This document shows, piece by piece, positions 34,737 to 55,829 of a stretch of 64,000 bases of DNA. Position 1 is the first letter of the stretch. Every line of letters begins with the position of its first letter. The stretch spans positions 1 to 64,000 of IMG/VR virus record IMGVR_UViG_3300011008_000026. The stretch is one strand, 5' to 3'. The DNA comes from a virus (Duplodnaviria; Caudoviricetes). Position numbers and translations under genes: made by a program. Under the pieces are notes generated by a model. That model saw only the letters and a list, made by a program, of their open reading frames with translations, did not search any database and was not told the origin of the DNA.

Positions 34737-35840
34737 TTAAGCGAATGTCGGGCTGTAAATAAACTTCAACGAATATAGATACATGCTTGTATCCGGTATG
34801 ATTTCGAGCTCATTCATTTTCATGATTGTAGTTCTTTCACTGCCGCTCGATGAAAGCGCATATTCTTCAGCGAGAGTCAGCGTATGTTCATCCGTCTGAT
34901 TTTCGATCTTTCGCCATTCGTTGTTGAGAAATATATATTCTCCTGTATAATCCTGATAAAGAATATTAGCAACGTCAACAGTTGTGCCGTTATAAGTGGT
35001 ATATATTTCACGGGTGCTCGGGAAAGCAGGATCAAGCGTAATAAAACCCTGATCGTGAAATAAGGAGGCTAACTGAGAAGATGTGCCGTCGTTGCTTCTG
35101 AGCATTGTTTTCCCGCTGATTCCATCAAGATATACATATTTATTCTGCTGGCGGGTATTGTTGGCTGTAATTGCAACAAATCTGCAGAAGGTGTTGTTTG
35201 TTTTATTTTTTATCGTCACACCGTTGCCAACCGATCCGGAAAGTGAAATGCTTAAAGGAGCTTTTTCTGTTCCGGGGTTTGCTAAGATAATGGTTCTGCC
35301 TGTTCCTATATTGGTATATTCCGATACCGGTTTCATTCCGTCTTTATCAAAGAGCGCAGTATTTTGCATGACTTCAAAATAATGATCCCGTGTATTGGAA
35401 TATGTAAACTTATTTTTATCAACAACATTCCAATCTGCATTGTTCAGCCTTCCGTAAGGGTACATGGCTCTCAGCGTAATCGTAATAAGCCCGCTGAGAT
35501 AAGTAATCCCGCCGGAATCATCTATGTCAACGACAGTAGCATTATAGTAGATCCACGGCCGCCGTTGGAATACCAGCCTGCCGCTTTTGCCAATCTTGAA
35601 CAGCGCATAGAATTTTGCCATTAATCCACGATCAATCTGTTTCTCATAAAAACATCTCAGTTTAAACTCCTTGGGTTCTTTCCATGCACCGTAAAAATAT
35701 CCACCGTTATGCCCGTCGTAAGTTTCTTCATGTGTATTGGATCTCGAAGGTTTATAAACATAAGTATCTTCAATCTCAGGAGCGTACTCAATTCCGAGAT
35801 CTCCAATATCAACACCGCAAAATGTAAAACCGCCTTTCAT
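34737..35840 (-). CDS. Distal tail protein (Dit)
   Basis: MKGGFTFCG..., G.L.F...P..YY.A, ..AMYPYG, N.GT..AP; position between TMP and Tal; RBS AAAGGAGG. Confidence 0.75.
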   Translation of the reverse strand: MKGGFTFCGVDIGDLGIEYAPEIEDTYVYKPSRSNTHEETYDGHNGGYFYGAWKEPKEFKLRCFYEKQIDRGLMAKFYALFKIGKSGRLVFQRRPWIYYNATVVDIDDSGGITYLSGLITITLRAMYPYGRLNNADWNVVDKNKFTYSNTRDHYFEVMQNTALFDKDGMKPVSEYTNIGTGRTIILANPGTEKAPLSISLSGSVGNGVTIKNKTNNTFCRFVAITANNTRQQNKYVYLDGISGKTMLRSNDGTSSQLASLFHDQGFITLDPAFPSTREIYTTYNGTTVDVANILYQDYTGEYIFLNNEWRKIENQTDEHTLTLAEEYALSSSGSERTTIMKMNELEIIPDTSMYLYSLKFIYSPTFA

Positions 35841-35929
35841 CTGAGCACCTCCTTTTGTAAATAGGGTAGAGGAGGAGGGGCCGTCAGGAGCCCCTCCTCC
35901 GAATAAATAACCGGAAAGTAATCCTCTCT

Positions 35930-35951
35930 CCATTATGGTGTTTTTCGAATG
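35930..35951 (-). promoter_or_regulatory. Candidate phage late promoter motif CATTCG-N9-ATAATGG upstream of Dit
   Basis: One of four copies (others at about 38653, 59331 and 61266). Confidence 0.5.
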
Positions 35952-35979: not shown

Positions 35980-37722
35980 TTAAAAAGCTAATGCACCCAT
36001 ATTGAAACCTCTGGTAGAAATTTCTTTCTGGAACTGCTTTCCAACCTTCTTTGCGACCGCTCTGATATCTTCATCCGTATTCAGATTGGCCTGAGTAACA
36101 TTTATAATCACGTCTCCGATACTCTGGTTGTAAGTTTGCCCAAGGCTTTCCGGATTCTGCAAGGACATCAACTGAATGTTGATCGAGTTAAGGTAGTCGT
36201 TTAAATCAGCGCTATAATCTTTAATCGCAGTAAGATCGATACTCATCTGATCCATATAGAAGCCAAGCATGTCATAGGTGTCTTGAGCAATCATAAACTC
36301 GGGATCGCCAAGCATTGAAAGTTTAGACGATGAAATGGTACTTGTTTCTCCCGCTTCGTCTATCCCATCAAGAAGTGTCCGTATTAATCTTGTGTCTCCG
36401 GAGCTGAGAAACGCTTCCGGATTTGTTTTCGTTCCGTCAACCCAAGCAGGGCCTGTGAAATCAACTAAGCCACCTTTTTTATAAACTGACATACCTTTCT
36501 TTGCAGTGGTAACCATAGGTGTTACACTTGCGGTAGCTTCATCGGATGTATACCCCTGCTTTTTCAGCAATGAAACTGTAGATGACTTCAAACTATCGAG
36601 ACTTGCGTTCGCTGCATTTTGAGCTTCTGTTTTCGTTTTGAAACCCTTGTTACTGTATGTCCGACCATCAAAAGAGAACGAATAACCATGTTCATCATTT
36701 GTGGTGGTGGTATTAGTGCTTTTATTTCCAGAAGAGCCACTATAACTGGACGAACTTCCGTTTACGTTTATGGTAATTACCGGAACGGAAGTTGTCTCAG
36801 CAGACGCGTTAACATTGTTTGCAAAGTCTGCGGCATAGCTGCCGATAACATGGCTGTACTCATCGTACGGATCGTAGTTCTGAAGTTCAGGATCAACCTG
36901 TTTGGTGCGCTCATAATAATACTTGACTTCACTTGTGTAAAGACCAGTGTCGTATCCTGTACCATTGGCAATTTCTACTTTGTAGGTATAATCCTTCAAA
37001 TCTTCCAGTTTCTCTACGATCTCGTGATTATCAGTCCACTCGGCGTCGTTCTTAGTAGAAGCTTCGAAGTCGTCATACAGTTTTTCCCAATAGGAAATAA
37101 GCGCTTTCTGACCGGCTTCAGAGGCAATCTGATATTCCTGACTCTCTTTCATGAACGCAATAAAGGATTCCTGCGAACGCATTTCTTTGTCAACCTGATC
37201 CCAGTAGGTCTGGACATAACCTTTCATATTATCCCAGGTGTCGCTCCAGCCCTGCTCCATTTGTTTCCGGCTTTCTTCCGATGCGTTTTTATAGGCTTCA
37301 TTATATTGCTTCATCCAGTTCAGGTAATCTTCGAATGACCCGCTCATGATCTTGGAAAGCTCTTCAGAGAAGTTGTTGGAATTTTCCAGCATCTCATTCA
37401 GATCTTCCTCGTAGGCTTCTTCATAGTTGCCGATAGCTTCAATCTGATCGTCTATAATCTGAATAGCGGTATCAGCTTCCTGCTGGGCAATATCCCAGGA
37501 TATCTCCTTTTGAAGATCCGCGATCTGCCTGCGAAGCTCTTTAGCATCCTTTGTACGGGTAGAGTCAGCGGAAATTACGGCAAGCTGACGCTGTAACTCA
37601 GCCAGTTCTTCATACTTATCCGCTTCGTCAATAGCCGACTTCCGGGCATTTAATCTTTCGTTAATCAGACTCTTCTCCTGATTTAACGCTTGCTTCTTCT
37701 TCTCCAGATCTTTCTTCAGTAG
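35980..37722 (-). CDS. Tape measure protein, exon 2 (C-terminal 580 aa)
   Basis: Continues exon 1 in frame (..EWA|LLKKDLEKKK); coiled coil; typical TMP C-terminus YKKGGLVDFTGPAWVDGT..PEAFL. Confidence 0.85.
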   Translation of the reverse strand, partial: LLKKDLEKKKQALNQEKSLINERLNARKSAIDEADKYEELAELQRQLAVISADSTRTKDAKELRRQIADLQKEISWDIAQQEADTAIQIIDDQIEAIGNYEEAYEEDLNEMLENSNNFSEELSKIMSGSFEDYLNWMKQYNEAYKNASEESRKQMEQGWSDTWDNMKGYVQTYWDQVDKEMRSQESFIAFMKESQEYQIASEAGQKALISYWEKLYDDFEASTKNDAEWTDNHEIVEKLEDLKDYTYKVEIANGTGYDTGLYTSEVKYYYERTKQVDPELQNYDPYDEYSHVIGSYAADFANNVNASAETTSVPVITINVNGSSSSYSGSSGNKSTNTTTTNDEHGYSFSFDGRTYSNKGFKTKTEAQNAANASLDSLKSSTVSLLKKQGYTSDEATASVTPMVTTAKKGMSVYKKGGLVDFTGPAWVDGTKTNPEAFLSSGDTRLIRTLLDGIDEAGETSTISSSKLSMLGDPEFMIAQDTYDMLGFYMDQMSIDLTAIKDYSADLNDYLNSINIQLMSLQNPESLGQTYNQSIGDVIINVTQANLNTDEDIRAVAKKVGKQFQKEISTRGFNMGALAF

Positions 37723-38821
37723 CAATTTACGTTAGCACTATTAGGTTGTCATCCTCCGTGCTGTTACACAACAAATTTCCAATGATATCCTCCTGCCGAT
37801 TTTCTTCTTCCTTCGGCGACGGCTTGAATATTTAAGTTTCCCGGCATTGCTTTATTGGCTTCCGTACAACTCGAATAAATTACACCTGTTTCAACGCACA
37901 TAACTGGTCTTGAAACTGCTTTCTTTATCTTTTCTATATGTTCTTCAGATATTGTATGGCCCATATGTGATTTGCTGATTTTTTTTCTCTATACTCTTTA
38001 CTGGATCGTAATCTTCGATATTCGGCGTAAAAGACTGGGTCTTGGAACTGCTTTAATGTTTGCTCTCTTCTTGCTTTTCTGGACTCTTCTTTTTGCAATG
38101 CTTCTTTTACATGCTCAAAGCGGATTTTTGCCTTCTCTGGATTTTCACGATAATGTTTCTTTAGAGACTCGCTTTTCATTTTTGAGTACTCTTCATTGCA
38201 AACCAGCGCCCCATCTCCACCGCAAGTCCAATTATACCCTTTGGCTGAATCCGTAGTATTATAAAGCGCAATATAATATATTTCACGATCATTTATAACA
38301 TCCGGAGTACAAAGCTCTACGATCTCAAATCTAAAGCTATCAGGGCCATATTTATCCCATGCGTTTTGTAAATGCATATTATTATGAATACCTTTTTTTA
38401 ATTTCCAAATATGTAATGCCCATCTTGCTTGAATATCAATTGATCTTCCAATATATCGTTTCCCGTTTACCAAGTTTGTAATAGAATAGACACCGCATTG
38501 CTTCATTGCAATTACTCCTTTTCGTTGTGTAACTCTCATACTTTCGCATGAGTTCAGACTATATCTTACGCACATAAAGTGCGCACCAACCGCTTCGGCA
38601 GAGTGACGAGTTCTGCCTACTCCCAAAGGGGATAGTCGTTGAACCTTACTCTCCATTATGCGTATTTTCGAATGCGCGAATAATGAGGGAGTCTTGGCTG
38701 CTGATTGCCCATTCTAATGCTTGTTATTTTTAAGCGTTCACGTTTGCCTTTTCAGACTGCGTTGTAGCTAGCAAGCCTTTAGGGTGTTCCAGCAATTCGA
38801 TTGGTAGGGCCCTACTGTTTG
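37723..38821 (-). ncRNA. Group I intron in the TMP gene (1,099 nt)
   Basis: 5' exon ends in U with P1 GGGCU/GGCCC; P10 CAGUAG/CUACUG; P AAUUGCUGGAA, Q AAUCAGCAG, R CAACGACUA, S AAGAUAUAGUC; terminal G. Confidence 0.9.
37764..38506 (-). CDS. Intron-encoded GIY-YIG homing endonuclease with NUMOD3/NUMOD1, split by a frameshift at an A8 run
   Basis: GVYSITN..NGKRYIGRS, R...H, E..YI, GYN; C-terminal V.C.ETG..Y.S..EA lies in another frame (37764..37964). Confidence 0.8.
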
Positions 38822-41800
38822 AGCCCACTCATTCTTATATCTGGTTCGAATAACATCAAGCATTGAATCCTGAGCCGAGACCGTCGCTGACAGCATTTCT
38901 TTCTCCAGCTTAATCCGGTTCTTAATTTCTTTATCGATTGCGTTTTCAACCGAAGTCCTGGCTTTGATAATATTATCCGCGTTTGTTTTGATCGCCTGAT
39001 TGTTCTTCTCAATCGCATTGTTAACAGAAGAATATTCTTCTTCCATACTCATGATCTTTTGATTGATCTCATCGTATATGGCAGAACCCGGCTCGACTGT
39101 TTTAAGCTGTTCTTGCAGCCGTTCGATTGTCTCTTCGATAGCCTTGGCTCTTTTCTCCTGAAGCTCTGTTTCGATGTTCAGCATCGTCCCGTAGTTTGTA
39201 AGTTCTCCGGAATTCTGATACTTTGTCTCTTCATACTGAACAAGTTTGATCTGATGCTTTGTAAGATCATCCTGATCTGTAAAATCATCCAGAATGCTCT
39301 GGAATTCAGCTTCCTGAATTTCCTGAACAAGATCATCGTAGGAATTCTGTGTCTGCAACAGGGTTTCCCGAAGACTCATAATCTCAGACTTCAAGGTCTT
39401 CCATTGCGTACTGCCTTCCGTGACACTGCCATCAGTCAGCTTCTCTTCCATTTCAGCGAGACTATCACTTGTTACACCAATGCTTCTGGCCGTAATATCC
39501 AGCTCTTCGTTAAGCATGTTGATGTAATTCGTGTTGTCATTCTGGTTTTTATATCCGGTCGCAGTCAGTTGCGCCATCTTAAGCTCGTGCTCAACATCAG
39601 CAGACTTCTCGTTGTATTTCGTGGTTAACTCCGAAACGATAGACTCTTCAATGGCTTGATCGTTTTCCTGTATTGCCAGAGTTGCAGAAGCAATTGCTTC
39701 TTCGTATTCATAGATTGCGTCACGAGCAGAATACCACGCAGAAGTACCTTCTTCCAGCGAACTCATCTCTTTTTTCATCTCATTCATAGCGTCGCTATAA
39801 AGAGATATCTGAGCGCTGTAATAATCGTTTTGATCGCTTAGCGTGTCACGGTATAAGCCCCACTGTTCTCCGTTTTGATATATGTTCCCCCATGTAGAGA
39901 GCATATTTTGTTCGTGAGTAAGCGGGTCCATCTGGTTTGTCAGATCTGTAGCAATTTGCGAAACGATCGCAGAATTTAACGCTTCCGTATCTTCCAGAGC
40001 CTGATTTTCAAGCTGAGCGTTTTCTTCTTTCAGAGCCCAGATCTTATCCCGGACATCCATCCAGTTCTTGGTACCTTCTTCGTACGTACCGATCAGGTCT
40101 TCCCATTCTTCGAGCTGAGCATTGTTGGTCGCAATATCATTTTGATAGTTTGAAATCTGAAAGCGTGTTGCGACAACATAGCTTTCAAAGTCATTTTGAT
40201 CAAGATAGTTCTGTGCCTTCAGCTGCAACATGGTAGAAGCATGCTGGATAGGGGCATCTTCGTTTGCCTGTTTTGCGGCTACAACAGAGATTTTCTTTCC
40301 GTTGACTTCATCAATGGTATTGGCAACGTCTGCCATAGACTCGTTTGCGGAGTCAATAGCTTCCTGAAGCTTGTACCATTCTGTGGAACCTTCTTCTGTT
40401 GCGTTTCTTTGTGCTACAAGAGCTTCGATATTTGCGTTATATTGATTCCAGAGATTCTGTTGAGCGTCTATTTCCTTATCAATAGCATTAATGTATCCCT
40501 GATAATCATTGGCGCGCTCGTAGTAAGTCTCTTCAGACTGGGCCATGTTTACAAAATGCTGATAGCGTTTAATGTAATGGCTTTGTCCTTCAATCAAAGA
40601 ATCTGCCGCAGAAGTATTGTTCGAGTTTTTATTAGCTTTGGAAGAATCTCGACGAGGCGTATAATTGCTATTTGTTCCAACAACTCTTGGCTTAACAGAA
40701 GTAATTGTGCCGTCTCCGTTTGAGTAAATGTCCCAAAGAATGTCCAATCCCATCTCTTCGGCCATTTCAATCATCTTCTGTTTGTCTTCAGTCAATCGCT
40801 CCCAGAACAGATCTTTAATCTGCTGAGTATCCATCGTAAAAGTGCCGGACGTTACCGAAACATCAACGCCATCTATAATGAGGGGATTTTCACGAACGTA
40901 ATTGGTTAGTATGTCGTTGATGTTTCCGAATGCGCTCTGGAAATCTTCGGTAAGAGCCTCAAGCTGGGCATCTCTATCCTTCTTTGCGGCGTCAAGCATT
41001 TCATCTTGTTTTGTTTTAACGTCATTCTTATAATCATATCCAAGAGAGTTGAAGTAATTCTTGGTTTCTTCATCTACTCTCTTTCCGCTCTCGAACTGTT
41101 TTCGGGAATATTCATCATTGGAGAAATTCTTCATCGAAGTTCTGAGCTTTTTAATTGCTTCGTTTTGATCTGAAACAGTACGATTTGCATTCTTTGTTCG
41201 ATTGATGATAGCTTCAGTTTGTTCTCCCCATGGTTTATAAATTTCTATAAGACCGTCCCGAATATTCTCGTTTAAGTTTTTGATCGTTTCTCCGGTTCCA
41301 TTTAATGTGCCGTTAAGGTCTTTTGAAAGTTCATCGACTTCTTCAAATTGGCCTATCCAATCTTTAAAAGCAGGATCGTCGCCCATCAGGCTTTGCAGTT
41401 CATCGACATTAAGCCCGCCATTGCTGTTTAAAAGATTATTGTATTTTTGATATTGTAATTCATAATTTTGATCTTGCGTAAGTGCGGCTGCGGACGACAG
41501 TTGTTTGAGCGAATTAACCTGCTCTTTTCCAAACTTGTCGTTGTTTGCTTCGGCTTGCTGGAATATATTGGCAACATCAGTATTGCGGTTCAAGAACTTA
41601 GCCCATTCTTCTTCGGTGAAAATAGCTCCTTTATGAGTTCCAACGTACTGTCTGAGCCAAGCTTCTCGTGACATGTCTTCGGTTACGGTGTTGGCAATTT
41701 GATCTATTGACGCAGCGTCCTTAACTGTTTTTGTCCATGTTCCATATTTGTCAATCGCATCTTCCGGAGTTAAGGTTTCTGACCCGCTCTCTAAGGCGTC

Positions 41801-44800
41801 AATTATTCCTTGAATCTTTTCTTTTGCGGCGTCATCAAGACCTTCTGACGCTGTTTTGAGTTCTTCAATGAAAGAAGGCCAGTTTTCTTCTTTTAATTCG
41901 ATTCCAAACGCACTTGACATTTCCGTTCGAACTGTTTCAAGAAGATCGCTAGACTTTTCACGAATCATATCGGCTAGTTTGTCTTTTCCGTCTTCTGTTT
42001 TCAGAACACTTTTTATGTAATCAGAATTTAAACCAAGCGAGGTAGCAAGAAGTTCAATGTTATCATCATCTGTCAGATCTCCTGACCAGGCATTGTTTGC
42101 CATAGCAAGTTTGGAACGCTCACTGTAAAAGCCAGCTGCAACAGATGCTGCCTCAGCCTTTCCGCCTTCTCTTAGGTCGGTGATGTTCTTAGCAATCTCA
42201 GAAGCATTTTGTGCAATATTTCTATCTTCGCTTAATTGGAGCGACTTCTCTAAATCCGATTGCGCTCCTTCGATAACAGCTTTATCAATTTCCGCCTGCG
42301 CCTTTGCCAGTTGCGCATCCAACTCATCCTGAGAATAGCTTCCGGCTTCCTTCATTCGGATATATTCCGTCGCCTGTTCTCCCATTTTGCCGGCAGCCTG
42401 AGTATATAAAGCGTTTTCTTCTGTGTTTTTACTTGTCAGATCTCCTGTTAAAATGCGCCCCTGTGCTTCGGCAAGTTCAGTGGACGTAAAGAGTTCTGTG
42501 GCATTATAGAAAGGATTGCTACGGTCAACTTCAGTTGAAGATCCCATATAATACGCTTTGCCTTTATATATACGATATCCATTTTCACGAGCTTCAGCCT
42601 TTATACGGCGCCGCTCTTCATCGTTTTCTGCTGCCGCATAACGATCGGCATAAGTTCCGGCTTGCTGATCTGTAAGAATCTTAAACTGCTGATTGGCTTC
42701 TGCCCGTGCTGCTTCGTAGTCATTCTGAATACGGGCATCATCCCAGCCAGTCAGTTCCTTGATCATTTCATACTGCTCGCTCTTGGTCCCGTTGTTTAAC
42801 TTCGCTCCGATCTGAGCATTTGAATGCGCTTTATTGGCAAGCTCAAGCTCGGCTTTAATCTTAAGATTGCCGCCCTTCTTGATATTTTCAATTGCAGAGG
42901 CAGTTCCTTCCAGAACTTCGCCAAGTTCTTCAGCCTGTTTAATTCCATCAATCGTTAATTTAATATCCGCATTTCTCTCGAATATCTCAAGTTGAGCGTT
43001 ATACTGTTCAAGAAGTTCAAGATCTCTCTCGGATAACTTTTCGCCATTTTGCTGTTTTTGCACAAGCGCTGAATACTCGTTCCATCCGGAAAAGTCTGAC
43101 ATGTACTGGGCCGCAACTGTCGAGTCGTAAGAAGAAAGGCCACCGTTGCGAATTTTATCAATAACTTCTTTCTGTCCGTTATATTTGTCTGTAGAAGTTA
43201 AACCTTTAACGCCATATCTGCTGCTGTCGATTAAACGCCTTGCATACTTAACCTGTTCATCAGTCGCGTTCTGAGAAAGGAGAGACGTTAAAAGGTCTTC
43301 GTCTCCGACAATTTCTTTCAGATAGGCACGTTCATTATCATCCAGCACGGTGCTTCCTGCCGCCCATTGCTTAAATGTCTGTGGGCTGTAATACTTCTTA
43401 ACGGCATCTATTGCCTGCTGTGGCGCTCCCTGCTTTGTCAGGAAGTCTATCTGAGTCTGTTTCTCATCAGCGATATACTGATCATATTCCTGCATTCTTG
43501 CAGTTTCAGAGTAGAAAACCCGATTGTCCTTATTAAGTAAACTGTCGAGCGCAGACGTCGCAATGTCTGCTTTTTGACCTTTTGTCAGCGTGCTCTTTCC
43601 GATAGACGATTTGCCTGCAATCCAGTTGAGAAGAGCAAGATAGGTGCCTTCATCTTCAAATTTTACTTCTCCGTTTTCTACAACTGCTCCGCTTAGAATG
43701 TTAGCGAGTTCGCCGTTCTTCTCGTCAGTCCTGAGAAGATTTACAAGAAGCTGCTGACCTTCAGTTCCCGTTTGAGCCAGGAAGTCTTTATATGAAGAAA
43801 TCTCTTTCCCCTGAATAAGATCGTTGAACTGATCGGCATATGTCTTCTGCTGATTGGCAGTAGCATATGTCTGAGATCCAGTAGTGACAAGAGGGGAAAC
43901 AATATCTTGATAGGCGGTAAAAATGATTTTGTTAATCTTATTTTGAATTTCTTCCTGGATTGTCTTTATGTCTTCGACAATGTCATACGAATCGGCAAAC
44001 ACTTCTGGCGAATCAGGAACATTATCTTCTATCTCAGAAATCAAATCGTCTGCGAGCGCAATTGTATAATCATTGACCGCACGAACTGTTCCTTCAGAAA
44101 TCTCTCCATATACAGTTAAAACCGCAGCTTGCCATGTTTCATCGATACCGTTTTCGTTAATTACAGGCTTTCCGTCAGGCTCCATGCTCGAAAGAGTTTG
44201 ATAGACTTCAACGATTTCTTGCATTTTCTCATCGGAAATATTATCGGACTTATACGGAGATATTTCACTAATTTTTGGAGCTTCTACTGGTAAAACCTCT
44301 GCAGAAACGTTGTTGAACGCGCCTTCGTATTCTTTAACAGCTTCTTGCCATGCCAAGTCATTTTCACTTTTATCTACAGCGATTTGTCCGTGTCCTTTGC
44401 TATGTTCTGCGACAAGACTCCAATAAAATCCTTCGCGAGCATCTTCCAGCATTTCCCATTCGTCTTCCAAGGATTCCACAAGAATTTCGTAATCGTCACT
44501 TTCCTGCTTTTCTCCGTTGTGATCGATGTAATAATACATGCCTTTAACAGCATCAATCTCCGCTTGAGCAGCTTTTTTGCCTTCTTCGTTAACACCAAGA
44601 AGGGTTTCGCCCATCCAATACTGAACTTCATTCAGTTTGTCTCGCCATGCCTGAAGTCCTTCTTCGCCAATACCATAACTCATGCCGGTATTGGCATCCC
44701 GATAATCTGTTAAACTGCTGACGTAACTCTCGGCCTGTTCCCGTCCTTCTTCTTCGGAAAAGGTTTTAACGATTTGGCCTTCGCTGTCTAACACAACATA

Positions 44801-47800
44801 TTTGTTTTCTGAAATCTCTCTATTTCGTTTTGCGTCCAATAGAGTTTTTGCATACATTGGATCGGTCGGACTGATTTGCCGAAGTTCTTTGCTGGCTTCT
44901 TTTATCGCTTCATTTTCTTTATTGTGCGCATGCAGTATTCCATCTGAATCTTCATAAAATAAGAAATCAGAAAAACCTAGCACATCTCTTGCAAATCTTG
45001 CTGCTTCGTTCTTGTCTCTGCCAGCCGCATATGTAAATGACCCAGGATGAATATCTTCAGCTCTTTGTGTTTCGTCTCCGAATAATCCATGATAAGTATA
45101 CGAATATTTGTCACGATTCTCATCTTTAAAATCGCTTATCGTCTGATCTCTTAAATGAATGCTTTCAGAATGTAATGCTTCAGCTTCGGCGTTAGCAGCT
45201 TCCCATGTTTCAAATTCATCTTCCAGAACTTCACCTGTTCGTTTATTCTTTAACGTATAAGTCGCCTTAGTAGTTTCGATAATTGTCGGCTTCTCGGCTT
45301 CATTCTGTTTGTCAGCAATGGCCTTTGCTTCTTCGTAGGAATATCTCTTTCCGTCTGACCCGATATAATACGTTCCAGCTCCAAGATATTCTAGGCCAGC
45401 GTCAGCAGCCTGTTGCTCAACGGTTTCCTGCTTTTTTTGTTGACGATAATCTACCAATGTATTGTCAATGTTTTGTTGATAATTACCGTCTGTTCCAAAT
45501 ATGCTATTGTAAGCATCGGTTTTCCCGTTTGTAACATATACTCCAGCGTATTTGCCTGCCAGATAATCTATTTCATCTGAAGTATATCTTCCACCGAGAA
45601 TAGAACTATCACTGGCCCACTCTATAAAAGACGCTTTCGCGCTATCGTAAACCGCCGTAGGAGCAGAATCATATCCCGAACTGTTTAAATAATTAAAAGC
45701 TGCTTCAAGTTCTTGCTGTGTTACAACTCCATCGGATAGCCGCTTCGCCCATGCGTCTTTGGTGATACCGGTTGGATCGCTTTCAAAATCGTCCATTTTG
45801 CCAGCCAAGGCTGCGCTATACAACAAACTACTTAACGGGTCTTTTAAATCATTTGAAAAGCTTATTGTGCTTCCCCCGAGCGCTCCTGAAATAGCTCCGC
45901 CTAAGCCCCAGAATCTGTCGTTAACTTTTCCTGCTTCAATCTGGGAATTCATGGCACGCAAAGCGTTAGAATACATTTTGTATTCTTTAGCATCTTCATC
46001 AAAATACCATAAAATATTATTAAACAGAGGATTGGAAATATCTACTTCTTTACTTGCGGTTTCAACTTTTGAGGAAATACCTTTATCAATTGCATCTATA
46101 GAATCACCTCTGGTACCCGTCATGTGGCTTTCCCATAGTTGATTCTTTTTCTCATCCGCTTCTTTGATGACATTATCAGCCGCTTCGTCTGCTGTTCCAG
46201 ATAGTTCTTTTAACGAATCCGTTAATGTATCAATGCTATAAATTGTATCTTTGGCAGAAGAATCAGTTAAACCAAGCGATACTGCAAATTTATTTATTAA
46301 ATTTGCGTATTCTTTATTTTCTTCCGATGTTCTGTTTTTTGTATTCCTTAATTCGGTCAAACGATCGATTCCGTTGAAGCGTGTTTCGTATGCTTCTTTA
46401 TACTGCGTATTGCTCGTGCTAACTCTTTGCTCGGCTGTAGTTGATTTTCCAACATTATCAAGAGCAAGAGCAGAAACGCCAGCTATTCCGAGTCCTATTA
46501 CAATGCCGGGAAGACTTCCGCTCTTCAAACCCGCCATTATAGCGGCTATGGGAATCAGCGCAGATAAAACTCCCGGTAAAGAACCGGCAGAGGTAACAAT
46601 ATTGTTAATACCTTGAACAATGCGGGTCAAACCATCTACAAAACTTGTCGCAAGTCCTGATTTAATAACATCCTGAACAAGCCCGTCAAATGTGTTTTTC
46701 AGATTGTCTAAGGAAGCCTGAACACTTTCAACATAGACGTCGTATTTCTTATCTGTAATTCCATCCGCCTGATCCAGAAGATCAAGATACTTGTCGATTT
46801 CTCCTTCCTTAATACCAGTCATAATGGCACTAAAGTTAGAGAATTGACGAGTGCCGGCAATAGCCGTTGCAAGCTGTCTCTGCTCGTCATCACTCATCGT
46901 ATCATACTTCTGAGCCAGATCATACAGTAAATCAAAAGAAGATCTTCTTGAACCGTCGGAATTATTTGTTTGTATTCCATGGGAACGGAGCAGTGTCGCT
47001 ACGGCAGAACCACTTATGGTGTTGCCATTCTCATCTGTGATGATCTCTTTGGTTCCGACCTTATTCATCCGGCCGAAAATAGAGTTCAAGGTTGTACCAG
47101 CAACATTACCTGTTACCTGTGTCGTTGCAGTTACAGCAGTAAGCAAGGCGACGAGCTGTCCATAGGTTGTTCCGTCTATTGCGGCGGCCGCACCGGACTT
47201 TTCAATTCCCTTTTCAATCTGGGCGGCATTGGTAGCGGCACTGTCACCTAACATGGTAACAACATCAGCTGCATACTGCGCATCGTCTACCAGTCCAGTA
47301 TTAAGGGCGGTTGTAATCAGCTTGGTTGCGTCAGTTGCTTTTGTACCAGAAACTTTGGAGAACTTGGCAATTGTATCAAGCCGTTCTTCCATCTCTTCGT
47401 CAGAAAGACCCTGACGATAGAGCTCCGTACTCATCTGAGCAATTTCAGAGAAAGAGATCTTGAGTTCCTTGGCCTTGTCAATCAGACCTTGTCCAAGCGT
47501 TTCCATTTCAGAGTTACTCTTCAGAGTAATCATCTGAATATTGGTAAGTGTCTTATCGTATTCCTTGACGAACCGCTTAACTTCTTGAAGTATCTTGTTG
47601 AAGATTTGTCTGCCAAATCTGGTGGCGAGCATACTGATCGTATTGCCAAACTGAACAGAAGCGGCGTTTGCAATGCCGAAAGGCCCTGACAGCTTAGCAA
47701 TCTGAGATCCGGCACGTTCTGATGCAGCTTCCAAATCTCTTAATTCGGCAGCAGTCTTATCGTAATCCTTATCGCCTTCTCCTTTTCCTTTTTCAACCAT

Positions 47801-50800
47801 TTCGTTAAGGCGATTCTGTACTGTATATTTTTGAGCATCTACTTTTACTTTATAATTCTGCCAGCCGCTAAGAGCGGAGTCTCTTGATTGTATAGCACGT
47901 CCAATAAATCCACGATTCATGCCGTAGGTTGACCTTGTCAGCTGGTCCCCCTGCCGCATAAGCTGGTCATGCTGAAAATCTCTGGACTGAGATCGAAGCG
48001 CTATGCTTTCATCTGTATGTGCTTTAAATTCCTTTTGTTCGGCTTTTAACCTTTCCAGGTCAGCACTAAGTCTTTTAGCTCCATCCGCATATTCTTGGCG
48101 GGTTTGTTTGCTATAAGATTGGTCTCTGGCCATATCATTAAGCTTTTGCAGTTCTTTTTCTACTTCAGCGATTTTTTCTCTCCACTTTTCAAGTGCTTCG
48201 ATTTGGGGATCATAGGTTCCTGCAATTTTGTCATTAGCCGTGGAGAGACTTTCAATCATACTCTTGGATCCAGCCAAAGAATAATTCATGAAATCCCGGC
48301 CGGCCATAGAGGAAAGAGTATTATCACCTTTAACGAATCTGAGTAGTTCGGATTGTTGCTCGTCGCTTAATGTATCAAATTGACTTGATTTAACAAATTC
48401 GTTAATTCGTTTTTCGTAACCACGTGCAATACCTGTATTTACTTCCAAACGCCTGATTGCGGCAGGTGTTTCTTTAACCTTTGCAATGGAAGATAAATTA
48501 CCGGAATACAGTTGTTTAGAAAATTCGGTACTTCCTTGAATCAGCTGCGCAAAACGATCTTGGGCTAGTTGCCTGAACTCCGGATCCGCCATCATCCCGC
48601 CAGGTCCGGAAGGTCCACTGGGCGGATTGTTTGGCGGAGAAGGAGAAGAAGGAGGATTGTTACCCGTGTTATTTTGGCCTGTCTGATTACCGAGTACAAC
48701 AGGAACATTGTTTGTTGTTGTGTTGTGATTGGCTGCATTCGGGCATTGAGATAAAGATGCATCATATTCAATGCCACAAATCGGACACTTCTTTTTCGGT
48801 GTTTTACCTGAAGAAGTTCCCCCGCCTTGTCCGGTTTGTCCATTTGTGGTGGTTTGACTTCCGGATGCGGCAGGCGTTGCAGAAGCATTATTCGTTTGTG
48901 TTTTATGATTAGCCGCATTGGGGCATTCTGGAAGATTATGATCATACCAAGTGCCACAAATAGGGCATTTTGTTCTCGGGGGAATAGTCCAAGGTTCACG
49001 AGAGTCATAGAATGGAATATCTTCCATGCCCGGTTCTTCTTCAAATCTGCCTCTAATTCTCAGTATCTGACTTGCCGATTTAACTTGCGATCCTCTTCCC
49101 CTTGCTAACGTATAATGCTTTTTGATTGAGCTATCACTTTCCGTTGTAATATTTGGGATGGCTTCAGTTGCAACCAAAGCTTCTTTCTCTTTTTCTTCCT
49201 GCGTTTTCTGTGCAACTTTCCACCCCAACTCTGGCTTGGATGAAGGTTGATAATTTACATATTGACTGCCTTGTAATAATGCGATTGCCTTTTCTGCGGA
49301 AACTTGTCCAACTCCATTAGTTACTAATTGCTGCCAATTTCCAGAAGAGACAGCTGCGGCGACAGTCTCTCTTGGTAAATTCAGAATTGCATCAATTTGA
49401 GAATCATTTAATTTTCTGCCGGACGCAGGCTTTTGCGACAATAAATCACGAGCTTCATCTTTTGCCGTCTTCTGAACTTGATTTGCTACTTCAGCTTTTG
49501 CTTCAGCCGCCTTCTGTTCTTCTTTCGCCTGTTCCTGTTTTGCATCAGTTGCTTTTTGAGCAGCTTCTTCAGCCTTTGTTTCAAGAGCCGTATCAGGAAC
49601 TTTGTCTGTTGTTGTAACCTGTACGCTTTTTTCGCGTACATCCTTTAATACTTCATCGGCCTTTAACTTTTGCGCTTCAATTTCTGCTTGCGCAGCAGCT
49701 TCTTCTGCTTTGACCTGCTCTTGAGTCTGAACAATCTTTTTTCTTTTCGGTTTCGTTTCCTTTGGTTTTGGCTGTTCTACAATCTGTTCTGCCGCTGGCT
49801 CTTCGACTTGTGGCGCTTTAGATGCTGTAATTCTGGAATACAGCATAGAAGGATCAACGCCTAAAGAAGCGGCAAGCTTTTCAGCGGATGCTTTTCTCTC
49901 CGAATCACTTTCTATTGCACGCTGAGTATATGAATAGTTACTAATTTGCTCAGCTACCATCAGACCGGCAGCTTTACGTCTCTTTGCATATTCATCGTCG
50001 AGATTAAAATATTCACCATTCTTTTGCTTTTGCTTTTGTTCTTTTTTCAAATCAGCCCAGATTTCTTCGTCTGCAAGCCTTTTTTGCGCGAGTATAGCAT
50101 CTTCATCTTCCTGAGAAAGAGCAATAAAATCTCCATTTAATAAGCCTGCTTTCGCCTGACGAAGCATCATAGTAAGTTTGTAGGCTTCAGTTCCTTCTCG
50201 TTCCGATGTTGGCATGTTCTTTGAATCGAGAATTGTATTCCAGTCATAGAGAGAATTGCCGTGTATATCGTGACCATTGATTTCAAGACCCTGCTGTTTA
50301 AGCTTACTTCTTTGACGAAGTGTTCCAAGAACCGCACCGTTGGTTAATGTCGGAAGATTAACTTCGTCGAGTCTTCTTTTGTTAAATTTTTCTTGTGCTG
50401 CCTGATCCCATACATATCCGGATTCGTCATTAGCGCCTTTTGTAGTAACATCTTTAGCGGCCCATTCGAAAATTCTTGCAAAAGAACGACCAAAAGAAGA
50501 TGCACTTGTTTGTTCTTCTGTCTGCGCCCATTTTTCTGCTGTTTTTAAGTGAGTAGAAACAACATCATATTGATCTTCGTGGTCCAACAGAGCCTGAGCA
50601 AATTCAGGATTAATCTCGCCATTTCTATTATAAAGAGCCGCAATAATATCTGTAGCTCTATCTGCTTGACCCATCATGGGACTGGTTACGCCGACACCAA
50701 ACATATAATCAATGAGGTCATCCATGCTGTCCAGTTTCCATGTTTTATCAGGGTTGTCCGGTAGACTTAGTGTGCGATTCTCTTTTCGCGCTTTTTGATT

Positions 50801-53800
50801 TTTCCGAACGTATGCTATTTTTTGTTCATCGGTCCATTTTGACGCATCAGGGAATTGTTCTTCAGGGTGTTTCTTTGCCTTTTCCTGCATATTGTCAAAG
50901 GCTGCCAGAAGAATGCCGTTAACTTGCTTGGTCGCTTCCTCGTTCAACAATCCCATTACCTGTGCGAAATCTTTTTTGTCCGTGCTGGATAAATTATCAA
51001 TGTTGAACATTGTGGACAGATCAAACTGACCTGTTTTATCACCATCGAAATCCATTCCCTGTAGGAATCCAAGAATTGGAGATACGGGATTAAAATAAAT
51101 GCCTTTCTCATCCAGCCCGCGATTTGACATAGATTTACGGATGGCAGCACCAACAGTAGACCGCCCGCCGCCTACCACATCATTGCTGTTCCAAAGGTTT
51201 TTTGCCTTTATGTTACCGCTTAAGGTTGCGGGAAATCGAACAAGGGAAAGAAATTTTGAATTGGATTTAGCAGAGACAACGTCGTTTTCTCCAAGATGCA
51301 GCTTTCTCTGCAAAGGTGTTAACTGTTGTCCGTTACGAACAAACATTTCATTAAGTACATTCTGCGCCCATGGGGCCGCCATGCCATAAGACATGACGCC
51401 TGTTGGCATCAATCTGTCACCTTCAGTATATCGCTGAAGCATATTGTCGATATGATCCTGCTTTTTCTTTCTGGCTTCTTCAGAATTTAAATCAATTGTT
51501 TGATCTCCGCCAAAGATAACATCGCGGGCATATTGTTCGTCGTCAAGATGCGCTATTTCTTTTTGCAGAATATTTGCAAAATAGGCTTCAATATCTTCTC
51601 TTTGAAACGCTCCTGCAAGCTGTCCGTTCACAATTTGTTTGGACAGCCACCGAGAAGAAGTACCAGCACCATCGTATGTTGTTTTAGCATATATATGGTG
51701 TCTGGAATAATCTCTGGAACGCCGATCATTTAACTGTGCCTGAGTCAGATCATTTCCTTGGTCGTCTTTAAATATAGCCTTATTTTTAATATTGTCATCA
51801 ACTTCAAGAAAATCAGTGTCCCAAGGTACAATAAGATCACTGCGCCAAACGACATTGCCCTTTTCGTCTTTTCTGACGTCCATTCCGGCTCCGGGAATAA
51901 CAAAATCGCCATATTGCATCATAATGCTCTGAACCATCTTGTTGCGCTTACGTCCGCGAATAGATGGATCGATTGCGGCAATTTTAGCTCTTGTGATATC
52001 ATTGTCTATGATCTGGTCAGGATTATCGCGTTTCATCCCAATCAAATCTTGCTTAACAAACGTGGCTTTTCCGCCGTAAACACGTCCCTGGAAGCTCTCC
52101 TGAACACCCTTGTTAAATGCCCAGTTTGCGCCGTCCATCAACTTGATTGCATCTTTCCCTTCGCCTGTAGCAAAGTGCCCGACAACAACCTTCATATTAG
52201 GTTTGCCGAGCTGTTCCATGATACGCTTCTCTTGCTGAGGATGAGTGAGTTCACCGCTTGCCTTTTTTTCCGCAATTTTCTTTTCCGCTTCCGGAGTGCT
52301 TTCAAAACCAAAGTTCATTCCCCAATAGGAACTTAGGTCTTCGCCATCTGTAGCTAACAGATTCATATTGTAAGCGGCTTTTGCAAAATCTTTACGGCTG
52401 GAAAATTCATTTCCGGCCCCATTCCGAAGTAATTTTAAACCAGCAGCCCGAATTTCATCAGAATATGGAGCGTCAGGCGCCAAACCAAGCTCATAGCGGC
52501 CTAGATCGTCTACGATTGAAGCCTTCATAAATTCTGTATGAGTTTTGCTTACACGAGTTGCGATATAAGGTGTATTATTAACTTCATAGCCGTTAGTTAG
52601 ACGTTCCTTTAATTCCGCCTTCAGCTTTGCTTTTTCTTTCTCGGGCAAATATTGATTCGCAAGACGCTCGTCGTGTTTTAGATAGATCATGTTGTCGTCA
52701 AAGTCATTATGCCCGGCTTTAGAAGCAGAAGGCATAGAATGAACAAGATCCATCAGCATGCTGCCGTTCATTCCGATAGTATGAAAATCATCGGGTGAAA
52801 TGGAAAGCTGTCCATTTTTTGCAGATGCTCTTTGCGGTCCGTGAATATGTGGAAATGCTGTCCATGTGCCATTAATGTTTTTAACGGGACTTATTCCGGT
52901 TATTTGGACATTTTGCGCCATCATATCCAGCGCATATTCAGCAAAGCCACGGTTTACTTCATGGGGCAAGTGATTTATTTGCCCGACATATCGTTTTTTC
53001 GGAGAAGTATTAGGATCAAACTGGGGAGCCTGATCCATCCTATAGTATCCCGGATTGTACCAGCTAAAACTTTCATCCATAGAACGTGCTGTTCTAAGTT
53101 CGCTATCTAAAGTTTTATTATGTCCAATCTTTCGGGAAATATTCGGCCGGTTGTCCGGATCTTCGACATCATGCGTTCCGTATCTGTAGTGGCCACGTGC
53201 ACCGGTGACAATGCCGCTAAAATTAATACCACCCATGGCATTAACCATATCGCGTGTGGCTTCGTTGTTGTAATACAGTTTGCCCTGACTTCTTCCATAT
53301 ACACCGGCAGCAACAGCAGCATCTGCGGCAAGATGATCTTTTTGAACAATTTTATCCAGCTTGGCCTGTTCTTCTCTTGTCAGTTTCGTGTTTCCGTCTG
53401 GCGTGCTTCCAAATGTACGAAGTTCTTCCTTTTTTGTTGGACGTCGAACGGGGATGGTCCGATAAGACGCGGGTACCATTTCACGGAAGGATTCAGGAGC
53501 CGCCCTAAAAACGACGTTTGAATTGCCTGCTACGTCACTCCGCATGGATTGCGGAAGTAAAATTGGCATCTGGCTTTTAATATAAGCAGACATAACGCTG
53601 GTTTTAGCGGCTTGAGGGTTTACAGATTTAATCTGCGCCTGTAAAGATTTCCCTTCTGAACTGGATATGAAAGCTTTTAGCAGCTCATCGTCAGAAAGCA
53701 TACTGCTTTTTTTGATTCCCTTCGAAGCCTGAGCCGAAGCTTGTGCAGTGGCCCTTGTCGCAACGGTAAGAAGGGATTTTTTTATTTTATCAGCAAAGCT

Positions 53801-54187
53801 AACGAGAGTATTTGTAATTGCAGGAGTAATATCTTTGGCAAAGTCCTGTGTATTGGAAACTGATTTTTGAATATCCTGAATTGTCTTGTCTGCCATTTCG
53901 ACTTTGCGTCTGTAGACTGCTGTCAAATCTGCCCGTTCAATTGAATTTGAGGCATTGTCGATTGCGTTTCTGGCTCGAACAATATCGGTCAGACTTGAAA
54001 TCCAGTGATCATATTTTGTTTTGATTGCTTCACCGTATCCGGAAAGACCCGTTCCCTGAGCCATGGGGACAAGAGAAGAAGCCTTCTCCTGCAGGCTGGT
54101 GATCTTACTTTCGATCTCTTCTGCTTTCTGGTTAAAGGGATCATCGTTAATATCGACACCTAAACTTAAAATTTCATTTTCATCCAT
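38822..54187 (-). CDS. Giant tape measure protein, exon 1 (5,122 codons), with N-terminal two-barrel RNA-polymerase-like domain
   Basis: TMP core (EYDKTLTNIQMIT..AKELK....EI......YRQG; GTTLNSIFGR; AGTRQ) at about 47570-46700; long coiled coils; DFDGD at 51052-51038; position between chaperones and Dit. Confidence 0.85.
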
Positions 54188-54247: not shown

Positions 54248-54287
54248 ATGATGGTTGAATTTTCAGATAGGGGAGGGGATTAAAGAG

Positions 54288-55829
54288 TTGTTTAAAAAGA
54301 ATAAAGATATAGGGGATGAATTGTTTTTACTTAAAAGCGAATACGAAAAAATAAAAATACAGCAAAAGAAATCTATGGATAAGATTTCTTCTTTAGAAAG
54401 CGTCGTTTCTGATCTCACAGGAAAAATCAAAGTCCTTGAAAAGAAGCTCGAAGATACAGAGAAGTCCAAACCGGTTGCTGCCTCAAACTCAGATATTAAA
54501 CTAACGCCCGAACAACAACAGGCGCTTACAAAACTCACAACAACAGACGATAATTATTTCGTCACGGGAAAGGCGGGGACAGGGAAGTCCACGCTGTTAA
54601 GAAAACTGGTGGAAATATCCGACCCGAAATCCACAGCAGTTGTTGCGTTTACAGGGGCGGCCGCGTTAAATGTCGGAGGTCAGACAATTCATACTTTCTT
54701 CAGATTGAGCCTTGGCCCTCAGGATGTTTTGAACTCAGACAATATTCAGTCGCCCCCGTATATCGAAGATGTTCTTGCCGTATTGAAAATCCTGATCATT
54801 GACGAAATATCCATGGTCAGATCAGACATTCTGGACATGATGGATCATAAGCTCCGGAAAGTAAAAGACGGCAATCTGCCGTTTGGCGGCTGTCGAATAA
54901 TTGCGTTTGGAGACCCGTATCAGCTTCCTCCGATTGCCAGTTCCCGTGAAGAAGAAAAATTCATCCGGCTCAGATACAATACGCTTCACTTCTTTGGCGC
55001 TCCCGGCTCGAAGACATTCAAAAGGATTGAGCTGCAGAATATTATGCGTCAGACTGATCAGCGGTTTATTGCCGCCCTGAATGAGATTCGCCTTGGGAAC
55101 CCTTCTGCAGAAACCCTTCGATACATTAATGCAAGCGGAAGAAAAGATTTCCCGGACAACTGGACACGTCTGACACTGAAGAAAAGTGTAGCCGCCGAGA
55201 TCAACCGTAAAATGCTTGAGAAAATTCCCGGCGAGGAGTTTATATTTAAAGCACAGTTTGGAGGAGACGATCCCCCTACAAGGAGCGATCTGACCTTCGA
55301 GCCTGTTTTGAACGTGAAGATCGGCGCTCGTGTAATTGCCGTTAAAAACGATCTGCAAAAACGTTATGTAAATGGATCGATTGGAATTGTAGTAGCCGTC
55401 AAAGACGATGAAATAATTGTCAACTTCAACGGAGTGGATATTCCTGTCTCGACAATGCTGGATGAAAAAGCGCAGTATTACTATGACAGAAAGAAAAGAG
55501 AGCTGTCCAAGCAAATCGTTGGGTGGTGCAATCAATACCCTCTGAAGCTGGCCTACGCAATTACCGTACACAAATCACAGGGCCAGACATTTGACAATAT
55601 CATTCTCGATTTCTCAGGATGCACAGCGTTTGCTCCGGGGCAGACCTATGTAGCCTTATCCAGATGCAAATCTCTGCTTGGCTTAAGACTGACAAGACCA
55701 ATTGACAGGCGGGATGTTTATGTTGATCCGGATATTACCGCGTACATGAACAATCAGTTTCAGCCGCGAAACGAAGAAGACATACTTGTCAGCAAATGGA
55801 TGGAAGAAATAGAACTGCCGTTTGAATGA
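54288..55829 (+). CDS. PIF1/RecD-like SF1B DNA helicase with N-terminal coiled coil
   Basis: GKAGTGKS, IIDEISM, GDPYQLPP, MRQ, AYAITVHKSQGQT, YVALSR; likely TTG start after GGGAGG (ORF track starts at 54255). Confidence 0.9.
   Translation: MFKKNKDIGDELFLLKSEYEKIKIQQKKSMDKISSLESVVSDLTGKIKVLEKKLEDTEKSKPVAASNSDIKLTPEQQQALTKLTTTDDNYFVTGKAGTGKSTLLRKLVEISDPKSTAVVAFTGAAALNVGGQTIHTFFRLSLGPQDVLNSDNIQSPPYIEDVLAVLKILIIDEISMVRSDILDMMDHKLRKVKDGNLPFGGCRIIAFGDPYQLPPIASSREEEKFIRLRYNTLHFFGAPGSKTFKRIELQNIMRQTDQRFIAALNEIRLGNPSAETLRYINASGRKDFPDNWTRLTLKKSVAAEINRKMLEKIPGEEFIFKAQFGGDDPPTRSDLTFEPVLNVKIGARVIAVKNDLQKRYVNGSIGIVVAVKDDEIIVNFNGVDIPVSTMLDEKAQYYYDRKKRELSKQIVGWCNQYPLKLAYAITVHKSQGQTFDNIILDFSGCTAFAPGQTYVALSRCKSLLGLRLTRPIDRRDVYVDPDITAYMNNQFQPRNEEDILVSKWMEEIELPFE

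Follow-up and report, generated by a model that had tools for sequence, protein, structure and literature searches.

The IMG/VR record IMGVR_UViG_3300011008_000026 (Duplodnaviria; Caudoviricetes) is 94.5 kb long and estimated to be 67% complete, and we analysed its positions 1-64,000, a stretch of 64,000 nucleotides referred to here as the window. The minus-strand tail module of this phage contains a giant gene that is best explained as encoding a siphovirus tape measure protein (TMP) with a predicted catalytically intact, single-chain polymerase of the YonO/QDE-1 class at residues ~468-1302. By analogy with gp96 of the Thermus phage P23-45, the TMP-fused polymerase is probably packaged and injected and would start viral transcription, with a free-standing enzyme encoded elsewhere in the record, P0029, following it. 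A preliminary description, made from the letters of the window, had proposed a two-barrel RNA polymerase domain within the TMP's N-terminal part, and this proposal is now supported by the conservation of its motifs, by a confident structure model and by three fold searches. Unless stated otherwise, coordinates are window positions on the minus strand, and residue numbers are those of the spliced protein in amino acids (aa).

Polymerase motifs and their conservation

A script located the motifs named in the preliminary description exactly where they had been placed, with LMDGANWAF starting at aa 683, FQGRVYGGK at aa 699, LVRFPAT at aa 982 and MDFDGDK at aa 1045. The first two make up the motif D685-G686...F699-Q-G-R702...K707 (52067..52135), which is assigned to the first double-psi beta-barrel (DPBB-B, beta-like) on the basis of its invariance and its YonO-like spacing. 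The [RK]xP motif expected upstream of the metal-binding loop is represented by R984-F-P986 (51230..51238), in which R984 and P986 are invariant. The second barrel (DPBB-A, beta-prime-like) has its candidate Mg-binding loop in D1046-F-D-G-D1050 (51038..51052), whose three Asp residues are likewise invariant. Between P986 and D1046 lie 59 residues, a gap that falls inside the range of the filter used for two-barrel RNA polymerases, namely an [RK]xP located 20-100 residues upstream of DxDxD (Supplementary Data 4, PMC10770324).

When 1.84 billion representative proteins were searched exhaustively with HMMER, aa 430-1500 serving as the query, only 28 clusters (50% identity) were obtained. In nearly all of them the protein has 3,800-6,000 aa and the offset of the domain is unchanged, and the remaining short members (107-1,818 aa) look like N-terminal fragments. 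In an alignment of 24 homologues, which share 24-68% identity with the query, 30 of the 1,071 positions are invariant, and 11 of these 30 columns are D685, G686, Q700, G701, R702, K707, R984, P986, D1046, D1048 and D1050; G1049 is nearly invariant. The conservation of the catalytic Asp, Arg and Lys residues, which the preliminary description had named as a check, is thus borne out, and their invariance, together with that of RxP, despite divergence to 24% identity is a signature of selection on catalysis. By a rough estimate, a lone DxDGD would occur by chance in ~7% of proteins this long; the motif set as a whole exceeds chance expectation.

The fusion itself is also conserved. One continuous frame joins the polymerase region to the PF10145 TMP core, and the distant homologues P0017 (28% identity) and P0020 (26%) also have PF10145 downstream of the domain. 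Its retention in relatives at 26-28% identity marks the fusion as a trait conserved in the family rather than an artefact of assembly.

Annotation by standard homology searches did not reach this region. Residues 1-1700 had no match in Pfam or in PHROGs (E <= 0.01 for PHROGs), while phmmer and the family profile returned only coiled-coil noise from the PDB sequences. A tblastn search of 50,697 GenBank phage records gave no match to the TMP polymerase domain or to the free-standing P0029, and scans of IMG/VR and GTDB genomes with the TMP polymerase domain gave no relative.

Predicted fold of the N-terminal domain

The AlphaFold2 model of aa 430-1500, built with the homologue alignment, has a predicted local distance difference test score (pLDDT) of 84.5 and a predicted template modelling score (pTM) of 0.80. 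It places a two-barrel RNA polymerase fold at aa ~468-1302 (model residues 39-873; 50282..52786). Against the PDB, Foldseek returned QDE-1 first (E 2.5e-5), followed by RDR2, P74-26 gp62, gp64 (8F72) and phi14:2 gp66. The gp96 structures (8H2M/8H2N) were not among the Foldseek matches listed, though gp96 was recovered in a second, Foldseek-independent structure search of 48,161 representative chains. The top seven rows of that search were two-barrel polymerases: ZmRDR2 scored 13.4, QDE-1 10.9, P74-26 gp62 9.4 and P23-45 gp96 9.2 and 9.0, with phi14:2 gp66 (5.8) and PolD (5.7) lower, and the first unrelated row reached 4.7. In BFVD, the best matches were phage proteins named RNA-dependent RNA polymerase.

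The alignments also cover the parts of the model that carry the motifs. Isolated double-psi beta-barrels (e.g. 7dww, 7dvc), which rank below the two-barrel polymerases, align to model residues ~501-634, the stretch with RxP and DFDGD, and the RDR2, QDE-1 and PolD alignments span the first-barrel region bearing R702 and K707. The second barrel is followed immediately by a 39-residue helix (aa 1068-1106; 50870..50986; DSSP helix 639-677 of the model), which, from its position and from the order of elements described in PMC10770324, is a candidate bridge helix. The alignment of the fused domain to QDE-1 ends at residue 1180, and that of the free-standing P0029 continues to 1367; judging by these alignment ranges, the fused enzyme may lack a C-terminal clamp element, although the model includes, with confidence, a helical connector of ~90 residues.

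The features that define the two-barrel superfamily are therefore found together in this domain: the DxDGD loop, the upstream [RK]xP, the basic residues of the other barrel and the overall fold similarity. The evidence from the fold is independent of the motifs, and a two-barrel polymerase fold is well supported for aa ~468-1302.

Relation to YonO, QDE-1 and RDR2

YonO is a DNA-dependent RNA polymerase that transcribes the late genes of SPbeta (Forrest et al. 2017, PMC5467207). Comparison of the domain profile with YonO from the SPbeta record by hhalign gave a colinear alignment of 366 columns running from the DG motif to DxDGD (E 0.0086, probability 4.7%). The block DG-x12-FxxRxxxxK comprises 23 residues both in the TMP domain and in YonO (residues 249-271), with identical spacing, and RxP precedes DxDGD in both, so the agreement with YonO stated in the preliminary description proved accurate. 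The spacers between the motifs are longer in the TMP domain (299 vs 243 and 62 vs 43 residues), and YonO differs further in being a free-standing protein of 839 aa that is not itself known in the virion. Membership of the YonO family, taken as a significant match to YonO or to its own PHROG family, phrog_8308, was not found for the TMP domain, which had no PHROG hit and the hhalign probability given above. The closest structural neighbours, QDE-1 (2J7N, 7Y7P) and RDR2 (7W84, 7EU0), share ~10% identity with the domain over the aligned residues and are cellular enzymes that use RNA or single-stranded templates.

The tape measure gene and its tail module

The recognisable TMP core begins close to aa 2,200, where the preliminary description had put it. 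PF10145 (PhageMin_Tail) matches aa 2238-2445 (46853..47476) with 84.2 bits against a cut-off of 33.2, six PHROG TMP families match aa ~1990-2590 with E-values down to 1e-32, and a hydropathy scan detected hydrophobic segments at aa ~2529-2580, C-terminal to the PF10145 core. The gene for the distal tail protein (Dit; 34737..35933; phrog_33, E 3.9e-16) is located directly downstream, so that the giant gene stands where a siphovirus-type tail module has its TMP. The protein thus combines a Pfam score above the gathering threshold with a tail-module location and with hydrophobic segments beyond the core, as is characteristic of TMPs.

The length of 5,700 aa given in the preliminary description holds for the product after splicing, which has 5,702 aa, but not for the raw open reading frame (ORF). 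According to the ORF list and its translation, the latter spans 38768-54187 and encodes 5,139 aa, the last 17 of which are intron read-through up to the stop at 38768. Exon 1 (aa 1-5122; 38822..54187) is followed by a group I intron (37723..38821; Rfam RF00028, 67.4 bits at 38535-38875) that contains a GIY-YIG homing endonuclease ORF (37934-38656; PHROG homing endonuclease, E 2.5e-33), and then by exon 2 (35980..37722), which provides 580 aa plus the stop and belongs to a 581-aa ORF (35980-37725). In the protein alignment with the uninterrupted homologue P0002, the tail of exon 1 aligns up to residue 5153 and exon 2 from residue 5154, so that the two exons abut; the intron boundaries were set by this alignment and are approximate.

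Outside the polymerase fold and the TMP core, the protein has further recognizable regions. The N-terminal region ahead of the fold (aa 1-467; 52787..54187) contains many invariant columns when four full-length homologues are aligned. Beyond the fold, an Ala/Lys/Glu-rich stretch (aa 1450-1560) precedes two paralogous zinc-ribbon-like motifs of the form CPxCG...CP (CPICG; aa 1741-1756 and 1801-1816; 48740..48967), found by pattern search. These motifs, which have a weak rubredoxin-like Pfam match (E 0.09), sit in a linker that is rich in Pro, Asn, Thr, Ser and Gly by composition count and leads from the polymerase to the TMP core.

Other genes of the tail module were also annotated. Downstream of dit there are two more giant tail-module proteins, one of 2,599 aa (18765-26564), which hits PHROG families without assigned function as well as minor tail proteins, and one of 2,143 aa (28289-34720), for which no match was found. 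A Dda-like helicase gene (54255-55829, plus strand; phrog_325, E 1e-84) begins 67 bp from the TMP start codon and lies on the opposite strand within an otherwise minus-strand tail module. A second group I intron match was detected at 59555-59801 (71.8 bits), and GIY-YIG ORFs at 58624-59427 and 60615-61238 flank a fragment of a virion structural protein of 228 aa (58624-61238 for the whole arrangement); on this sequence evidence, the tail-tube region also looks intron-split.

A second, free-standing polymerase

The record encodes a second candidate polymerase 12.9 kb beyond the window. P0029 is an ORF of 1,013 aa at genome position 76922-79963 on the plus strand, with the motifs MADG, VRFPAN and DVDGD, and its fold is two-barrel. 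It matches phrog_8308 with an E-value of 5.3e-14, and the profile of its homologues aligns with YonO over 562 columns (hhalign probability 98%, E 1.5e-13). These comparisons identify P0029 as a predicted YonO-family two-barrel RNA polymerase. Some 43 homologues of 970-1,390 aa were found in metagenomes, some of them on contigs of 150-178 kb. The structural genes form a minus-strand arm, from which a plus-strand arm of small ORFs diverges, and the P0029 gene is located close to where the latter begins.

Profile-profile comparison between the TMP-domain family and the P0029 family aligned the right region (GD-LLP...RFPA...DxDGD) without reaching significance (probability 0.1-0.3%, E 0.18-0.49). 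The sequences thus give no significant signal for or against paralogy of the kind proposed for the P23-45 pair.

Three tandem A/T-rich repeats of 41-49 nt, with a GGGAATGGG-type end, were observed at genome position 74167-74315, at the junction of the structural and small-ORF arms. They could be an origin or a regulatory array.

Proposed mechanism and alternative explanations

The model that we favour can be set out as a series of steps. The acidic/basic coiled-coil stretch and the zinc-ribbon-like linker would connect the polymerase to the TMP core, and the polymerase, being a portion of the TMP, would be incorporated into the virion with it. At infection it would leave the tail together with the TMP and stay at or near the conduit that the TMP forms in the envelope, where it would transcribe the first-entering phage genes, the host polymerase not being needed. 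P0029 would then take over the later gene classes. In siphoviruses, the C-terminus of the TMP is at the tail tip and the N-terminus points toward the head. An N-terminal polymerase would therefore exit last, next to the leading DNA end, which fits the model.

The enzymatic activity, DNA-template dependence, virion presence, injection and division of labour that this model presumes are put forward by analogy with P23-45, whose virion RNA polymerase, gp96, is fused to the TMP and has a non-virion polymerase as its counterpart (Chaban et al., Nat Commun 2024, PMC10770324). In that study, the gp96 fragments 1-1200 and 327-1124 polymerised RNA, and the polymerase domain was present in virions within full-length gp96. 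[quoted passage not shown] The authors proposed that the gp96 polymerase stays at the TMP pore and transcribes during DNA entry, and they described this association of a polymerase with a TMP as previously unsuspected (PMC10770324).

Several observations weigh against the favoured model. None of the sequence links between the TMP domain and the known polymerase families reaches significance, and, given that the nearest structural neighbours, RDR2 and QDE-1, are RNA-templated, the fold leaves the template preference unsettled. The surroundings of DFDGD (model residues 616-630) are poorly defined, with pLDDT below 50. Judging by the shared fold, the three Asp residues would face R702 and K707. 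Activity and delivery, in this uncultured phage, are likewise argued from the Thermus case. A tail tube would accommodate a folded domain of ~95 kDa only with difficulty, and gp96 is unusually flat. The record is ~67% complete, which leaves either genome end as a candidate for the one that enters first; a simple k-mer count over the genome revealed no repeated promoter-like motif, and no RNA run containing the stretch was present among the runs listed.

Among the alternatives, an active polymerase that is not injected deserves attention first, although we regard it as unlikely. Such an enzyme would act late in the infected cell, during accumulation of the TMP precursor or once cleaved from it, for example by boosting late transcription, and would play no part in the next host. 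The TMP is a late structural product, which means that the domain would be present in the cell late in infection anyway; many TMPs are processed, the presence of the domain in the virion is here deduced by analogy, and P0029 could serve other gene classes. However, the family has retained the fusion down to 26% identity, which is hard to explain if the linkage to the TMP had no role, and in P23-45 the full-length fusion is found in virions and at the first-entering genes by 5 min post-infection (PMC10770324).

We consider it improbable that the domain has another template or product, be it as an RNA-dependent RNA polymerase like QDE-1 and RDR2 or as a primase-like or DNA-synthesising two-barrel enzyme, similar to PolD, with the role of priming the replication of incoming DNA. 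The names of the BFVD matches, which would favour the former, are automatic, and the members of the phage clade that have been tested, YonO, gp96, gp64 and phi14:2 gp66, are DNA-dependent transcriptases (PMC5467207, PMC10770324). Moreover, it is not obvious what RNA template a double-stranded DNA phage would have when it enters, and the colinear sequence alignment of the domain is to YonO. It is very improbable that the domain is a catalytically dead relic retained only as a spacer or structural element within the tape measure, since, for all the low confidence of the modelled catalytic loop and the many inserted modules that giant TMPs tolerate, the three Asp residues, RxP and the basic residues of the other barrel have stayed invariant in the homologues. 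An intact polymerase delivered with the TMP thus remains our preferred reading of the gene.

Origin and implications of the fusion

The DNA of the record was found in animal-gut metagenome runs from two studies. Over 551 aa, its large terminase (genome position 70683-72350, minus strand) shares 27.6% identity with SPbeta YonF (E 3e-42), and this is the only clear protein link to SPbeta besides the YonO-like polymerase. Tentatively, and with slightly less than even confidence, we suggest that the TMP-polymerase fusion has no common origin with that of the Thermus phages but arose from a YonO-type enzyme in a gut-phage lineage with a distant likeness to SPbeta. Attachment of a transcriptase to the conduit for the DNA would then be a recurrent, convergent solution, and the attached enzyme might also, through transcription, help to draw the genome into the cell.

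To date, a TMP-fused virion polymerase has been characterised only in a small group of Thermus phages, and the occurrence of the same design in an uncultured gut phage argues that the strategy is no thermophile oddity. A second, mesophilic family, comprising the 28 clusters described above, would allow the study of how the enzyme travels with the TMP, how it finds its promoters and whether such fusions have arisen repeatedly. For annotation, it follows that ~1,500 residues of such TMPs are not ruler, and hence the tail length cannot be read from the total protein length.

Comparison with known virion polymerases

The preliminary description knew of no experimentally characterised case of a polymerase fused to a TMP, but gp96 of P23-45 is one (PMC10770324), and similar systems are named in P74-26, G20c and TSP4; the structures are 8H2M and 8H2N. 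It had also considered the architecture of the enzyme to be different from that of the virion RNA polymerases of N4 and crAss-like phages. This is correct for N4, whose virion polymerase is T7-like and has an unrelated fold, but not for phi14:2, a crAss-like phage, whose virion polymerase, gp66 (6VR4), belongs to the same two-barrel structural class as the present domain. What does set both apart from the present protein is their location, as they are podovirus capsid-borne or ejection proteins and are not part of a tape measure.

The differences from gp96 concern sequence, domain content and setting. BLASTP of the whole proteins gave nothing significant, hhalign aligned gp96 with the TMP domain over only 32 columns around DFDGD (probability 1.8%), and phrog_23188, the family of gp96, had no match in the present TMP. 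While gp96 contains Peptidase_M23 and lacks PF10145, the present TMP contains PF10145 and lacks M23. The polymerase occupies residues 327-1124 of gp96 and aa ~468-1302 here, and RDR2 and QDE-1 score above gp96 as structural matches to the present domain. In addition, the TMP gene described here has a group I intron, and its phage comes from animal-gut metagenomes, whereas P23-45 is a hot-spring phage; gp96 has been characterised by experiment, and the present protein is known from its sequence and a model.

The likenesses concern the overall design. Both proteins are giant TMPs (5,002 aa for gp96 vs 5,702 aa here) with a single-chain two-barrel polymerase at the N-terminal side, and both have a DFDGD loop with RxP upstream of it. 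In both phages, the genome arm facing away from the structural genes encodes, amid small ORFs, a second, free-standing two-barrel polymerase; in P23-45 this is gp64, whose gene lies among small ORFs near the left genome end, a placement similar to that of P0029. Two features of the gp96 type, a single polypeptide with the polymerase N-terminal to the TMP core and a companion free-standing polymerase, are thus found here. A TMP-fused virion polymerase with a companion polymerase was therefore already known, and what is added is a family unrelated to it in sequence, with a different TMP core and a YonO/QDE-1-like enzyme and in a mesophilic gut setting. By this analogy, the present TMP-polymerase, although not a detectable member of the gp96 sequence family, would work like gp96.

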